From Candidatus Omnitrophota bacterium (GTDB taxonomy: Bacteria > Omnitrophota > Gorgyraeia > Gygaellales > Profunditerraquicolaceae), in NCBI GenBank assembly GCA_028716245.1, contig JAQUQW010000001.1, positions 104,793-168,792 of the forward strand: DNA of 64,000 nt, given 5' to 3'. Below the pieces are notes generated by a model. It was given only the letters and a program-made list of their open reading frames with translations, was not told where the DNA came from and searched no databases. Shown in pieces: positions 20,059-47,388 of the stretch (position 1 is its first letter; each line of letters starts with the position of its first letter). A program made the position numbers and the translations under genes.

Positions 20059-20120
20059 ATAGGGACAGCGACCATTTTTCTTGGTCGCATCGAAGAAAAA
20101 AATGGTCGCTGTCCCTATTT
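20057..20120. repeat. Family-1 palindromic repeat, copy A (TAGGGACAGCGACC arm, loop, GGTCGCTGTCCCTA arm)
   Basis: Perfect arms of about 22 bp with a 14-16 nt loop, immediately 3' of the GT9 stop. Confidence 0.8.
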
Positions 20121-27072: not shown

Positions 27073-27135
27073 ATAGGGACAGCGACCGTTTTTCCTTTCT
27101 ATACGACCAAGAAAAACGGTCGCTGTCCCTATTTA
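27071..27135. repeat. Family-1 palindromic repeat, copy B
   Basis: AAATAGGGACAGCGACCGTTTTTC...GAAAAACGGTCGCTGTCCCTATTT, 3' of fmt. Confidence 0.8.
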
Positions 27136-30327: not shown

Positions 30328-30393
30328 TAAATAGGGACAGCGACCATTATTTTTTGGTTGCATTGAAGAGAATAATGGTCGCTGTCCCTATTT
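30328..30393. repeat. Family-1 palindromic repeat, copy C (loop in inverted orientation)
   Basis: ATAGGGACAGCGACCATTATTTT...AATAATGGTCGCTGTCCCTATTT between gap and pgk. Confidence 0.8.
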
Positions 30394-34017: not shown

Positions 34018-34081
34018 AAATAGGGACAGCGACCATTTTTCTCTTCTATGCGACCAAGAAAAATAGTCGCTGTCCCTATTT
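34018..34081. repeat. Family-1 palindromic repeat, copy D
   Basis: AAATAGGGACAGCGACCATTTTTC tcttctatgcgaccaa GAAAAATAGTCGCTGTCCCTATTT. Confidence 0.8.
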
Positions 34082-39672: not shown

Positions 39673-39737
39673 TTAGGGACAGCGACCATTTTCCCGAGTC
39701 TAAGAATTGGTTGGAAAAATGGTCGCTGTCCCTAATT
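39673..39737. repeat. Family-1 palindromic repeat, copy E
   Basis: TTAGGGACAGCGACCATTTTCC...GGAAAAATGGTCGCTGTCCCTAA, 3' of etfA and 9 bp before the IS1-like insertion. Confidence 0.8.
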
Positions 39738-39916
39738 TCAATCTAAGGTAGTGGGTCAATTTGAAGGGGCTAGCCAAAATAAATTCCTGATTTTAAACAA
39801 TAACAGCAGTTTTAATAAAGCTTGACTATATTGTTTGTGTTGATAGAATAAGGTTAATATGAATCCCACCCTGGCTATCGCTAGAATATATTTTCAATAT
39901 TGAGGAGAGAATTGAT

Positions 39917-40513
39917 ATGGATATAGGCGCTGTCTTATTACAGTTGATGAAACAGCTTAATAGTAGCGTTTTTGTTTTATTGGCAATGTTGGGGTGTTTA
40001 TTTTGGGTAGTTTATAAGGTTGGAAAATGGTCAGAAAAATTCAAACATCATGCTGATAAGATATTAAGAATAGAAAATCTTGCCGAGAAGTTTATTGAGT
40101 TAAAAACTAAAGTAGATTTGATCTACGACAATACGAATCCAAGAAAGACAGTGGCAGCAATGAGTCCAATAAGTTTAACTGAAACAGGAAAAGATATAGT
40201 TAGTAAAATTAGTGCTAATAAAATCTTAGAGAAATATCTTCCACAATTAGTGAAAGAAGTTGAGTTAGAGAATCCTAAAAATGCTTATGATATTCAAATG
40301 TCTTCTATGAAGCTTGCGAAAGAAAAAATGATAGCTTTCCTTAATGAAGAAGAATTGAATACTATCAAGCAGGAAGCGTATTCACGAGGAATAATAGTTC
40401 AAGATGTAATGTCTGTGTTTGGAGTTTTATTGCGAAATCACATACTAAATCTGAAAAGCATACCAATATCTGATGTAGATGTGCACTCTCCTGCTAAACA
40501 AAAAATATCTTGA
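39917..40513 (+). CDS. Cargo ORF 1: hypothetical protein with one N-terminal TM helix
   Basis: GAGGAGAG RBS. 198 aa. AT-rich. Confidence 0.35.
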   Translation: MDIGAVLLQLMKQLNSSVFVLLAMLGCLFWVVYKVGKWSEKFKHHADKILRIENLAEKFIELKTKVDLIYDNTNPRKTVAAMSPISLTETGKDIVSKISANKILEKYLPQLVKEVELENPKNAYDIQMSSMKLAKEKMIAFLNEEELNTIKQEAYSRGIIVQDVMSVFGVLLRNHILNLKSIPISDVDVHSPAKQKIS

Positions 40514-40543
40514 AATTATACAAAAATATGGCATAATATATTT

Positions 40544-40795
40544 ATGCCTAAGCACTCAAGCATAAATAAAGACGAAAATCAGATAGCCGCTTCAATACTT
40601 AGCCAAATTACAGAAGTCGCAACGCAACAACCTACCAAAAACCCTGCTGCCGTAGCTTTAGGCCGATTAGGTGGACTTAAGGGTGGTAAGGCTAGAGCAA
40701 AAAAACTATCTGCTAAACAAAGAAAAAATATAGCTATATTGGCGGCTACAAAGCGTTGGAAAAAAAATCTTGACTTTCTACTTTACATAAGTTAA
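40544..40795 (+). CDS. Cargo ORF 2: small basic protein (LGRLGGLKGGKARAKKLSAKQRKNIAILAATKRW)
   Basis: 83-aa Lys/Arg-rich ORF. A 7-5-7 inverted repeat GGCATAA tatat TTATGCC overlaps the start codon. Confidence 0.3.
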   Translation: MPKHSSINKDENQIAASILSQITEVATQQPTKNPAAVALGRLGGLKGGKARAKKLSAKQRKNIAILAATKRWKKNLDFLLYIS

Positions 40796-40845
40796 AATTG
40801 ATAACTTGAAATTTAATCAAATTTATGGTAACCTAGGAGTAGATC

Positions 40846-41232
40846 GTGTGTTCGTTAAATTTCGGTTCTGACGGATACGTAACATTGCCAACAAAGTTTC
40901 ATGGGGATGTAAAATTATCTAGCTGGAAATGGGAGATAATTTGTGCAAAACCAGAAAGGCAGTGGTACAGATTTAATAGCGAGAAAATTCCTACAACTCT
41001 TGTTGCTCCTGATTATGTAAGGTTGCATCATAATAAAGAGGGACAAGTATTTTATTATAAGGAATTTGCTCGTTATAAACTAACAGAACAGATTGAAATC
41101 CCTGCAAGTGAAAGATTTAAATTTTTTGCCGTTATTATAGATTTAAATAATGGGAATACGATATGTACCATTTATCCCGTTGGAAAACCTAAGAAAGGTA
41201 AAGAATTTAAACCTGAGGAGGTAGAAGCATGA
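40846..41232 (+). CDS. Cargo ORF 3: hypothetical protein (GTG start), translationally coupled to ORF 4
   Basis: AGGAG RBS. Overlaps the next ORF by 4 nt. Confidence 0.3.
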   Translation: MCSLNFGSDGYVTLPTKFHGDVKLSSWKWEIICAKPERQWYRFNSEKIPTTLVAPDYVRLHHNKEGQVFYYKEFARYKLTEQIEIPASERFKFFAVIIDLNNGNTICTIYPVGKPKKGKEFKPEEVEA

Positions 41233-41564
41233 AAGGTATAAAAGGTTGTATGAATATTGATTTCGAGGAAATTTACGAACAAGAAACCGATACATATTAT
41301 GTTTCTTTTAGGACAGGTGAACCTTCGTATGCTATTGAAGTGGATGATGTTCTTATTATGGAAGCCGGAATCTTTACGAATATGCCTACGGGATTTAGGA
41401 TATTGAACTTTAAATCTAATCCAGTACAAGCGGTTAGATTTATTATTGAAAAGATCAAAAAAACAACGGAAGAAGCTAAAAAAGAGGCTTGTGGTCGTTT
41501 CCGAGTTATGGAAAATTGTTTAGAAAAAAGACTCGAAAAAACATTGGCACAAGCGAACGCATAA
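41229..41564 (+). CDS. Cargo ORF 4: DUF2283-like small protein
   Basis: YYVSFRTGEPSYAIEVDDVLIM...GFRILNFKS pattern resembles DUF2283. Confidence 0.35.
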   Translation: MKGIKGCMNIDFEEIYEQETDTYYVSFRTGEPSYAIEVDDVLIMEAGIFTNMPTGFRILNFKSNPVQAVRFIIEKIKKTTEEAKKEACGRFRVMENCLEKRLEKTLAQANA

Positions 41565-41594
41565 TATAAATTAAAGAAACTTAATATTTGGCAA

Positions 41595-41627
41595 TAGCCG
41601 AGTTAATTAAAACTCGGTTATTTTTTA
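41595..41627 (+). terminator. Rho-independent terminator after the cargo operon
   Basis: TAGCCGAGTT aattaaa AACTCGGTTA followed by TTTTTT. Confidence 0.6.
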
Positions 41628-41628
41628 C

Positions 41629-41657
41629 TTGACAATGCTTGAGCGCTCAAGTATAAT
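41629..41657 (+). promoter_or_regulatory. Consensus sigma70 promoter TTGACA-17-TATAAT with a 14-bp perfect palindrome (CTTGAGCGCTCAAG) in the spacer
   Basis: TTGACA at 41629-41634, TATAAT at 41652-41657. Upstream of the transposase gene. Confidence 0.55.
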
Positions 41658-41685
41658 ATATGTAGATAAGGAAAGGAGCGCTACC

Positions 41686-42534
41686 ATGAATAAATTGACT
41701 AAAGAGAAAAGAATCCAAGTTATAGCCTCACTCGTCGAAGGCAACTCTATTCGTGCTACCTGCCGCATGACTAATGTAGCCAAGGGCACAGTCTTAAAAT
41801 TGCTTAAAGACATCGGCAAGGTCTGCACAGAATACCAAAACAGGGTTTTTGTTAAATTGCCTTGTAAACGTCTCCAATGTGATGAAATCTGGTCTTTTTG
41901 CTATGCCAAAGCTAAGAATGTGCCTAAGGATAAGCAGGGTAAATTCGGCTATGGTAATGTTTGGACTTGGACGGCGATCTGTGCGGATACCAAACTTGTG
42001 CCTTCTTGGTATATTGGAAACAGGGACGCTATCTCTGCTTTACGTTTTATGAAAGACTTAAAAAAGAGATTAAAGTATCGTGTTCAACTTACCACAGACA
42101 GCTTCAAGTCCTATTTAGTTGCTGTTAACCACGCCTTTGGAAAGGATATCGACTATGCTATGCTTGTTAAGAAATACGGGCATGAGACAGAGAATTATCC
42201 GGAAGTGCGATATAGTCCGCCTACCGTAGTTGGGATAGAAGAAAGACCTATCAACGGAACGCCCGAATCACGGCATATCTCAACAAGCTTTGCGGAAAGA
42301 AATAACTTGACTATGCGCATGAATATGAGAAGATTTACCCGATTAACTAACGCCTTTTCAAAGAAAGTGGATAACTTAGCTTGCGCTGTAGCGCTTCATT
42401 TTATGCATTATAACTTTTGCCGGATTCATCAAAGCTTAAGAGTAACTCCTGCAATGGCTTGTGGAATTACTAAGCGTCTTTGGAGTATTGAAGATATCGT
42501 AAATTTGCTCGACGAGACCTCGACGAGAAAATGA
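41686..42534 (+). CDS. IS1-family transposase (single ORF with N-terminal HTH)
   Basis: AAGGAG RBS. C-terminus ERNNLTMRMNMRRFTRLTNAFSKKVDNLACAVALHFMHYNFCRIHQ parallels IS1 InsB [41 protein letters not shown]. Confidence 0.6.
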   Translation: MNKLTKEKRIQVIASLVEGNSIRATCRMTNVAKGTVLKLLKDIGKVCTEYQNRVFVKLPCKRLQCDEIWSFCYAKAKNVPKDKQGKFGYGNVWTWTAICADTKLVPSWYIGNRDAISALRFMKDLKKRLKYRVQLTTDSFKSYLVAVNHAFGKDIDYAMLVKKYGHETENYPEVRYSPPTVVGIEERPINGTPESRHISTSFAERNNLTMRMNMRRFTRLTNAFSKKVDNLACAVALHFMHYNFCRIHQSLRVTPAMACGITKRLWSIEDIVNLLDETSTRK

Positions 42535-42635
42535 AACTGACCCACTACCCAATCTAACTTTCCCATATTTTTGCAGTAATCTGCTTTAAATCAGTACTAA
42601 TCATACCTATATGTTAAATAATGTAAATATTTTCC

Positions 42636-42664
42636 TTGACAAAAAACAGTCCTTTATTTATAAT
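42636..42664 (+). promoter_or_regulatory. Consensus sigma70 promoter TTGACA-17-TATAAT for the excisionase-family HTH gene
   Basis: TTGACA at 42636-42641, TATAAT at 42659-42664. First in-frame ATG at 42671 implies a leaderless mRNA. Confidence 0.5.
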
Positions 42665-42670
42665 GCGACT

Positions 42671-42850
42671 ATGGTTAATAGCAATTTGATGACTATTGAA
42701 GACTTAGCAGATTATTTAAAAGTTACTCGCCGCACTATTTATGATTGGTTAAAACATAATAAGATACCGGCGCTAAAGCTGGTCGGGCAATGGCGCTTTA
42801 AAAAAGATAAAATTGATGATTGGCTTGAAGGCCAGTCGCAACCACATTAG
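42671..42850 (+). CDS. Excisionase-family (MerR-like) HTH DNA-binding protein
   Basis: MTIEDLADYLKVTRRTIYDWLKHNKIPALKLVGQWRFKKDKIDDWLE fits the excisionase-family HTH pattern. Start could be 42671 or 42689. Confidence 0.5.
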   Translation: MVNSNLMTIEDLADYLKVTRRTIYDWLKHNKIPALKLVGQWRFKKDKIDDWLEGQSQPH

Positions 42851-42852
42851 CA

Positions 42853-42880
42853 CCCGGCGCTAATCGGAATTGCGCCGGTG
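42853..42880. repeat. Family-3 hairpin repeat, copy b (CCGGCGC taatcggaatt GCGCCGG)
   Basis: Related hairpins at 6737-6763 and 55717-55748. Confidence 0.55.
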
Positions 42881-47323: not shown

Positions 47324-47388
47324 AAATAGGGACAGCGACTATTTTTTATTCTAATATTTTATCAAAAAATAGTCGCTGTCCCTATTTT
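47324..47388. repeat. Family-1 palindromic repeat, copy F
   Basis: AAAATAGGGACAGCGACTATTTTTT...AAAAAATAGTCGCTGTCCCTATTTT in the divergent intergenic region. Confidence 0.8.

Follow-up and report, generated by a model that had tools for sequence, protein, structure and literature searches.

A 64,000-nucleotide stretch of the genome of a Candidatus Omnitrophota bacterium (assembly GCA_028716245.1, contig JAQUQW010000001.1, positions 104,793 to 168,792; hereafter the window, whose numbering is used throughout) contains a 2803-bp segment at 39747-42549 that most probably represents an intact, single-copy unit transposon related to the insertion sequence (IS) IS1. It would be a transporter IS (tIS), with a backbone that includes a small gene, orfS, and with slots for cargo, one of which holds a toxin-antitoxin (TA)-like pair of genes, ORF3-ORF4. 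The locus is a transposon bounded by inverted repeats (IRs) and an 8-bp target-site duplication (TSD), and its ends were read as follows (the clade named here is that of the related elements described below).

39739-39746, no strand: left copy of the TSD, caatctaa (CAATCTAA), by direct reading; identical to 42550-42557 and starting with the preferred S-A-A
39747-39762: left IR (IRL) as first read, 16 nt, GGTAGTGGGTCAATTT / ggtagtgggtcaattt, by direct reading
39747-39764, plus strand: full IRL, 18 nt, GGTAGTGGGTCAATTTGA, one mismatch to the clade consensus GGTAGTGGGTCAGTTTGA
42534-42549: right IR (IRR) as read, 16 nt, aaactgacccactacc, reverse complement GGTAGTGGGTCAGTTT, 15/16 match with IRL
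42532-42549, minus strand: full IRR, 18 nt, GGTAGTGGGTCAGTTTCA, containing the transposase stop codon
42550-42557, no strand: right copy of the TSD, caatctaa (CAATCTAA), by direct reading

The initial annotation had described an IR pair bracketed by an exact 8-bp repeat, and all of its coordinates were confirmed. The IRs are really 18 nt long, each of them is one position off the clade consensus, and the transposase stop TGA (42532-42534) falls within IRR. When as many as three mismatches were tolerated, the IR pattern occurred at only two sites in the window, which are the two element ends, and a general repeat search of the window also recovered the IRL/IRR pair. Under a chance model based on the base composition of the window (16-nt IRs with at most one mismatch, 0.7-5 kb apart, with an exact 8-bp direct repeat outside them), the expected count per window is 8.7e-5; among the 16-nt IR pairs of equal quality in the window, a flanking direct repeat was seen for IRL/IRR only. 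These figures bear on the notion that a canonical, cargo-free IS of about 0.9 kb simply lies beside unrelated host genes, the distant left repeat and the 8-bp repeat being coincidental. Canonical IS1 indeed measures 768 bp, and the transposase gene with its promoter fills just the last 0.93 kb of the element; however, a second IR-like sequence upstream of the transposase gene is absent even with three mismatches, the joint occurrence of IRs and TSD has the very small chance expectation given above, and the layout of IR, orfS, cargo, transposase gene and IR with 8-bp TSDs recurs in 74 independent elements. The IR search, the delimited relatives and the chance estimate together refute this reading, whose probability is negligible.

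The right part of the element is occupied by the transposase gene and a site that may serve as its promoter.

41629-41657, plus strand: promoter-like site for the transposase gene, TTGACA-17-TATAAT, 12/12 matches (consensus scan, pattern match only)
41686-42534, plus strand: transposase gene, 282 aa, a single open reading frame (ORF) with an N-terminal helix-turn-helix (HTH) and an IS1-type DDE domain (ORF list, profile matches)

The top profile for the transposase was NCBIfam transpos_IS1 (NF033558; E 2.2e-13), with 50.6 bits under a cut-off of 100 bits, and Pfam DDE_Tnp_IS1 (PF03400) scored 19.8 bits against a gathering threshold of 24.1, so that the profile check proposed earlier pointed to IS1 as the best family at a score beneath its cut-off. 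BLASTP against InsB of Escherichia coli IS1A gave an E-value of 7e-5 over the glutamate motif, with the first aspartate motif collinear. Residues D66, D138, and E204 are invariant across 189 aligned transposase sequences and match the corresponding residues of InsB, and the motif T..ER.NL..R....R..R....FSK, also invariant in the 189 sequences, aligns with InsB as well. In the database more than 8000 clusters are homologous to the transposase, commonly under the label 'IS1 family transposase', and a precomputed PF03400 match is present on some of its close homologues. Members of the IS1 family are described in ISfinder as producing target duplications of 8-9 bp and having IRs that begin with GGnnnTG, a pattern which the 8-bp TSD and the IR start GGTAGTG fit (the tip is GGTGATG in E. 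coli IS1A). In canonical IS1, insA and insB' are joined by a programmed -1 frameshift and the zinc-finger protein InsA acts as regulator, an arrangement that single-ORF ISfinder subgroups do not have; here too, the transposase is one 282-aa ORF, without an InsA homologue or a frameshift. Judging from its catalytic signature, the transposase appears to be a distant relative of IS1: the family assignment of the initial annotation stands as regards the IS1-type, InsB-collinear DDE residues, but the relationship is distant, with scores below the profile cut-offs and no InsA or frameshift.

The promoter-like site ahead of the transposase gene lies within backbone DNA conserved with the relatives. 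Two perfect sigma-70 consensus promoters (TTGACA-17-TATAAT, 12/12) were observed, the one just listed and another at 42636-42664, outside the element, which would serve a host HTH_17 gene. A transposase gene would not be expected to have a promoter of consensus strength, and tight repression is therefore suggested, with OrfS or the HTH of the transposase itself as possible repressors.

A scan of species-representative genomes provided 80 transposase loci (L001-L080), whose transposases are 56-68% identical to that of the window and which come from a broad range of phyla, among them Acidobacteriota, Nitrospirota, Thermodesulfobacteriota, Planctomycetota, Chloroflexota, Verrucomicrobiota, Patescibacteria, and Omnitrophota. 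In this set, 69 elements could be delimited with the consensus end GGTAGTGGGTCAGTTTGA, 62 of them with an exact 8-bp TSD, and their length ranges from 1817 to 4969 bp (median 3008). Five of the closest relatives (L081, L082, L084, L086, and L087; 75-83% transposase identity) have the same ends and a flanking direct repeat; in four this repeat is exact and 8 bp long, and in L082 it reads CCTCGCG, its eighth base being one that may equally be counted as the first IR base. The same IRs and TSDs, the latter mostly exact and 8 bp long, were thus found in 74 delimited relatives, as the initial annotation had suggested looking for, and all 74 carry 0.6-4 kb of extra genes, none being a bare 0.9-kb IS; its remark that a cargo-bearing IS1-family element is unusual does not apply to this clade. 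Plasmid copies with these ends and a direct repeat are also present in two cultured organisms, one of 3370 bp in Mesorhizobium loti (CP050295) and one of 2634 bp in Acidiphilium multivorum. The 62 target sites of L001-L080 share a weak palindromic consensus, approximately CAA-N7-[SAAnnKYS]-N7-TTG (TSD bracketed), with C or G at position 1 in 48/62, A at position 2 in 31/62, and a mirrored TTG 8-10 nt outside the TSD. The locus in the window has been delimited correctly and is a mobile element of a kind that recurs, rather than a one-off oddity.

Besides the transposase gene, the following features define the backbone of the element and the slots within it.

39822-39849, plus strand: promoter-like site upstream of ORF1, TTGACT-16-TAGAAT with extended TG (consensus scan, pattern match only)
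39917-40513, plus strand: ORF1, 198 aa, cargo of slot 1, with one N-terminal transmembrane segment and a helical domain (ORF list)
40544-40795, plus strand: orfS, 83 aa, small basic protein with the motif NPAAVALGRLGGLKGGKARAKKLSAKQRKNIA..AA..RW (ORF clustering, hidden Markov model (HMM))
41593-41622, plus strand: terminator-like hairpin after ORF4, closing the cargo operon at the boundary of slot 2

In blastn comparisons with the closest relatives, shared DNA was limited to element positions 763-1040 (orfS) and 1877-2803 (transposase promoter to IRR), and positions 1-760 and 1050-1876 were specific to the element. Since the shared DNA is confined to the orfS and transposase segments, the backbone consists of IRL, orfS, the transposase gene, and IRR; slot 1, from IRL to orfS, holds ORF1, and slot 2, from orfS to the transposase gene, holds ORF3-ORF4. 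The similarity to related elements restarts at element position 1877 (window 41623), right after the hairpin that follows ORF4. It was in the Omnitrophota subclade that the first slot was opened between IRL and orfS. ORF1 homologues fill the same slot in the two closest elements, L087 (E 1e-15) and L081 (E 1e-4), and the only similarity of ORF1 DNA to the relatives is a 60-nt stretch shared with L087; ORF1 had no match in Pfam, NCBIfam, or PADLOC. A consensus scan found a promoter-like site ahead of each transcription unit of the element. The GC content is 30-35% in the cargo region, about 40% in the transposase gene, and 43-49% in the flanks. The five ORFs, the terminator, and the low GC content of the cargo in the initial annotation were all recovered, the first two from the ORF list and the hairpin at 41593-41622.

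Its count of four cargo genes has to be reduced to three (ORF1, ORF3, and ORF4), as orfS is a core gene of the element clade and not cargo. It belongs to the largest cluster of non-transposase ORFs, which comprises small ORFs from 51 loci, and an orfS HMM found it in 69/74 elements, on the transposase strand and upstream of the transposase gene, at a median distance of 75 nt from the IRL tip to its start; in the closest relatives, orfS is 63-85% identical. The conserved C-terminus of OrfS reads NPAAVALGRLGGLKGGKARA.KLS...R..IA.KAA..RW, and the copy on the M. loti plasmid is annotated as 'histone H1' by PGAP. No Pfam or NCBIfam family matched OrfS. An InsA-like identity was considered and rejected, because OrfS has no similarity to IS1 InsA; its translation contains no cysteines. 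The basic motif of OrfS (GG.KGG.ARA..L....R..IA..AA..RW; window 40673-40780) was also observed as the N-terminus of P63C-domain proteins, a recurrent cargo of the clade; sites in relatives are L081 2144-2230, L087 2439-2558, and the P63C genes of L010, L019, L025, L035, L038, L056, and L057.

The nature of the variable genes was surveyed in a census of 137 cargo ORFs, each 110 aa or longer, taken from 67 elements. Pfam families included HTH_3 (20), Peptidase_M78 (8), P63C (7), SDH-type ClpP protease (6), and PemK (3), as well as methyltransferases, NotI, GmrSD, Mrr, and AAA_21, and PADLOC recognized PD-Lambda-2_B (9), RmrA (7), RmrT (3), capP-like proteins (7), HEC-06/GmrSD, and MTase_II. RosmerTA (RmrT/RmrA) is an experimentally validated anti-phage defence TA family (PMC10440598). 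Taken as a whole, the clade thus serves to carry small immunity or addiction modules, and, since its cargo is rich in defence and TA genes, the same reading is plausible for the unannotated cargo of the window. One case was set aside: in the A. multivorum plasmid (NZ_CP041717), a RES/Xre TA pair of the MbcA/ParS type (L173 4883-5721) abuts the right end of a related element, and its candidacy as cargo was rejected, since it lies just outside IRR and the TSD, the element having inserted beside a TA locus.

The two genes in slot 2 of the window element form an overlapping pair.

40846-41232, plus strand: ORF3, 128 aa, first gene of the slot-2 pair, putative toxin (ORF list)
41229-41564, plus strand: ORF4, 111 aa, second gene of the pair, DUF2283 family, with a long C-terminal helix, putative antitoxin or regulator (ORF list)

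ORF3 and ORF4 share 4 nt (ATGA). Only three relatives of ORF3 were obtained by a word-index search, and about 140 clusters by a profile search, a family of ~120-aa proteins which are all named 'hypothetical' and have no Pfam domain. Invariant residues of ORF3 are K17, H19, E37, R38, D56, and R59. Weak matches to PBECR3 (best E 0.0068) occur in 4/27 members and to PBECR2 (E 0.049) in 1/27, and the ORF3 of the window itself matched no known toxin family. For ORF4, 99 representative relatives were found. Its own score against Pfam DUF2283 (PF10049) is 14.7 bits (threshold 23, E 0.035), and DUF2283 matches were detected in 35/45 of its homologues (21-48% identical to the window protein), with a best E-value of 1.4e-11, so that transitivity supports a probable membership of ORF4 in this family, which the initial annotation had already noticed.

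A metagenome scan with the ORF4 alignment produced 80 loci, and the presence of an ORF3 homologue directly upstream of the ORF4 homologue in 73 of them indicates that the two genes constitute a conserved module. This module is found inside other members of the clade: L110 (2724 bp, TSD GACATTTG) has the same architecture as the window element including ORF3-ORF4, and L120/121, L124, L140, and L155 contain the pair in the window gene order, whereas in L088 (3512 bp, TSD CGATTTCT) it occupies a different slot, 3' of the transposase gene and on the opposite strand. L098 1586-2892 is a 1307-bp derivative that has no transposase gene and consists of IRL, orfS, ORF3, ORF4, and IRR with its own 8-bp TSD (TCCGTCCG), presumably a non-autonomous, cargo-only form mobilized in trans. 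Co-transposition of the cargo is therefore borne out by independently inserted relatives with TSDs of their own (L088, L098, and L110), and the position of ORF1 and ORF3-ORF4 inside the IRs and TSD of the window element agrees with the definition of a tIS, in which passenger genes move with the element.

Outside such elements, the neighbours of the pair include PemK, BrnT, DUF4160, MNT with a ParE-like toxin, Cas4/Cas2, an integrase, a TrwC relaxase, and an IS1595 transposase, surroundings which are typical of TA and defence modules. At L101 5436-6341, L103 6381-7286, and L105 6381-7286, the pair directly adjoins a transposase gene of the IS1595 family (DDE_Tnp_IS1595, E 2e-40), and the module may also travel with this sister family of IS1. 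The layout known from type II TA systems is present in ORF3-ORF4 (two small, adjacent, co-oriented genes, a conserved pairing, and mobile or defence-related surroundings), and the pair behaves like a mobile toxin-antitoxin or defence-type module, with the function itself predicted from this context. Regarding the earlier suggestion of a small addiction or defence module spread by an IS, the conserved pairing, the co-transposition and the TA-like neighbourhoods were found, while the addiction or defence activity is an expectation derived from them.

Several results weigh against the overall interpretation. The transposase stays below the curated IS1 cut-offs in both NCBIfam and Pfam. ORF3 has no significant match to a toxin family, its PBECR similarities being restricted to E-values of at least 0.007 in 5/27 members, and its AlphaFold2 model, calculated from a 4-sequence alignment, is unreliable (pLDDT, the predicted local distance difference test, of 46). 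Comparison with solved structures gave no significant match for ORF4, nor did sequence searches of the PDB with the profiles of ORF3 and of ORF4 give one, and PADLOC matched none of ORF1, ORF3, and ORF4. The pair is not specific to the element clade either, as among 17 dereplicated loci flanked by 1.5 kb or more on both sides, only 3 adjoin an IS1-like transposase gene. In addition, FseA and QseM, which are characterized DUF2283 proteins, are transcription regulators of an integrative and conjugative element (ICE) and not antitoxins (PMC4755241). A regulatory role of the pair therefore stays a live rival, according to which ORF3-ORF4 would control the mobility of its carrier, with the DUF2283 protein serving as a transcriptional activator or anti-activator, in the manner of FseA and QseM in the excision of ICEMlSymR7A. 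These two were the only experimentally characterized DUF2283 proteins found in the literature search, and such a role would suit both the location of the pair immediately upstream of the transposase promoter in the window and its frequent occurrence on mobile elements, beside an IS1-like or IS1595 transposase, a relaxase, or an integrase. However, the pair has its own promoter and terminator, and its slot and orientation vary (in the window and L110 it precedes the transposase gene on the same strand, in L088 it follows it on the other strand); the mobility genes with which it is associated are unrelated to each other, 14/17 of the well-flanked loci have no IS1-like transposase nearby and place the pair amid classic TA or cas genes, and most members of the clade transpose without ORF3-ORF4. 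Control of carrier mobility is therefore considered unlikely, and a TA or defence-type module is preferred.

A further objection concerns mobility. No second copy of the window element was detected, either by the IR search of the window or in the protein database, where the transposase cluster is on one contig. The empty site can be reconstructed from the flanks as ...GGTCGCTGTCCCTAATTTCAATCTAACTTTCCCATATTTTTGC..., and exact-protein look-ups of the transposase and etfA gave no match in which to find it; the sole other contig, reached via ORF3, matches the window at 100% identity, junction included. The empty sites and further copies that the initial annotation had proposed to look for were accordingly absent from the look-ups, the window and the ORF3-linked contig, which counts against the interpretation in that present-day mobility is unproven and is inferred from intactness only. 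An immobile relic, in other words a former transposon that is now fixed and whose genes have been retained or domesticated by the host, would be in line with these negative searches, with the single-copy state, with the one position by which each IR deviates from the clade consensus, and with the presence of elements at the same locus upstream of smc in related Omnitrophota genomes. On the other hand, the TSD is perfect and the IRs match at 15/16 positions, the transposase ORF is uninterrupted and retains all the invariant catalytic residues, and the promoter-like sites are intact; the elements at the shared locus differ in TSD, position, and cargo, indicating repeated independent insertions and not one inherited relic, and a cargo GC content of 30-35% against 43-49% in the flanks suggests that the host composition has not yet been reached. 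A relic thus appears improbable, and an intact element is favoured; a recent transposition of the window element is plausible, given its perfect TSD.

The insertion context is of interest in this respect. The element is situated 6 nt 3' of the terminator hairpin that follows etfA and 61 nt upstream of a small HTH_17 gene, which precedes smc. The hairpin is one copy of a repetitive extragenic palindromic (REP)-like intergenic sequence (aaataGGGACAGCGACC, loop, GGTCGCTGTCCCtattt), observed six times in the window versus zero copies expected by chance; these hairpins look like terminators or REP elements. The use of the other five copies as an in-window empty site was rejected, as the hairpin to the left of the insertion stops short of the insertion point. 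An Rfam search of the element found no RNA family, only spurious sub-threshold microRNA matches on the flanking hairpin. The copies and the corresponding intergenic regions are located as follows.

20062-20115, 27076-27129, 30334-30388, 34023-34076, 39676-39732 (after etfA), 47329-47382: REP-like hairpin copies
42558-42880 in the window, 4048-4444 in L081, 6865-7296 in L082, 6865-7660 in L084: intergenic region upstream of HTH_17(-ACP)-smc

L081, L082/83, and L084/85 also have clade elements in the corresponding intergenic region ahead of HTH_17(-ACP)-smc, oriented as in the window. The TSDs differ (CAATCTAA in the window, AGCTGTTG in L081, CCTCGCG in L082, and CCATCCCC in L084), as do positions and cargo, and the four Omnitrophota genomes therefore represent independent insertions into one region, which suggests either a regional hot spot or preferential retention there. 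The elements of L086 and L087 are located away from this region. A clade-wide link of the element to the downstream HTH_17 gene was rejected, since HTH_17 follows only in Omnitrophota relatives. Directly after the right TSD of L082 (6865-6885), a sequence resembling the element IR tip was observed, GGTAGTGTAATAT, which may be what is left of an element that occupied this site before and would suggest insertion beside resident ends.

Taken together, a scheme for the movement of the element can be proposed, in which the transposase would bind the GGTAGTG... ends (GGTAGTGGGTCA), as expected from IS1-family DDE chemistry, and join them to a target whose strands are cut 8 bp apart, here between the etfA terminator hairpin and the HTH_17-smc operon; gap repair would then yield the CAATCTAA duplication. 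OrfS may be a DNA-binding accessory protein or a regulator of transposition, a role suggested by its near-universal presence, its fixed place by the left end, and its strongly basic C-terminus. In slot 2, ORF3-ORF4 would be a self-contained unit of two genes, equipped with a promoter and a terminator of its own, most likely a TA or abortive-infection-type pair, in which ORF3 might act as the effector, possibly a BECR-fold nuclease, and the DUF2283 protein ORF4 as its neutralizer or regulator. While being spread by the element, such a module would stabilize it in the host, protect the host, or both.

More broadly, a very large IS1-related clade (more than 8000 database clusters) appears to consist, wherever ends were delimited (n = 74), of 2-5 kb elements with a conserved accessory gene and variable genes, many of which belong to validated anti-phage or TA systems. 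A tentative extension of this view, rated less likely than not, is that the clade represents an undescribed cross-phylum 'defence shuttle' family, with a fixed backbone (18-bp GGTAGTG... ends, OrfS as a dedicated accessory protein, and the HTH-DDE transposase), two to three slots swapping TA and anti-phage modules (RosmerTA, PD-Lambda-2, GmrSD, restriction-modification systems, and ORF3-ORF4), derivatives that have lost the transposase gene (L098), and repeated insertion in one orientation upstream of smc in Omnitrophota; it would then be an IS-based cassette platform for immunity genes. If the general picture is true, a small and easily recognized vehicle would be added to the elements that spread immunity genes across phyla, the cargo slots would offer a 'guilt by association' catalogue of new defence and TA modules, with ORF3-ORF4 as one candidate, and the plasmids of M. 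loti and A. multivorum would provide cultured examples for experiments.

Compared with E. coli IS1A (insA/insB), the window element shares the collinear D, D, and E residues, the ER.NL..R....R..R....FSK motif, and similar IR tips; however, IS1A is 768 bp long and cargo-free, whereas the window element has 2.8 kb with passenger genes, and the two frames of IS1A, one of them encoding InsA, are replaced by a single ORF with its own HTH, orfS being unrelated to InsA. Within the IS1 family, ISfinder distinguishes single-ORF and 'ISMhu11' subgroups, with sizes up to ~4.6 kb, implying passenger genes, and with transposases that have no zinc finger; the single-ORF HTH-DDE transposase and the length of the present element would match these subgroups, which may correspond to its clade. 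Literature searches on ISMhu11 and on IS1-family passenger genes did not find a description of the clade, and the conserved orfS beside IRL, the defined cargo slots, and the defence-type cargo are not something that can be attributed to any published description known to us.

Insertion sequences are usually treated as cargo-free. According to the TnCentral curators (2021 preprint), passenger-carrying IS (tIS) are restricted to the IS1595 and IS66 families, the former being the sister family of IS1 (Siguier et al. 2009, cited in PMC4611040). Like the tIS of these families, the window element has IS-like ends, a transposase, and passenger genes inside its IRs; in contrast to IS1595, its transposase fits IS1 profiles (E 2e-13) far better than those of IS1595 (E 4e-3) and does not have the IS1595 zinc ribbon. 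The element can be classed as a tIS that combines an IS1-type transposase with a small accessory gene of its own and with slots for cargo.

With regard to the cargo, DUF4258-DUF2283 gene pairs exist, and ORF4 resembles FseA and QseM of ICEMlSymR7A in that its family matches DUF2283; it is a small protein whose gene is the second of a two-gene operon located on mobile DNA. It differs from DUF2283 proteins by an added C-terminal helix of 45 residues, and the pair differs from other DUF2283 pairs in that the partner, ORF3, belongs to a distinct family without a Pfam domain. As to RosmerTA and other TA or defence cargo on transposons, the relatives carry RmrA/RmrT, PD-Lambda-2, GmrSD, and restriction-modification genes, although the cargo in the window shows no match to any of these systems. 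TA pairs in Tn3-family transposons and the defence cargo of Tn7-like elements are other examples of such freight. For Tn7-like elements, the idea that transposons spread small defence or TA modules is established (PMC8649781). Compared with Tn3 and Tn7 elements, the vehicle here is a minimal IS1-related element of only 2-5 kb.

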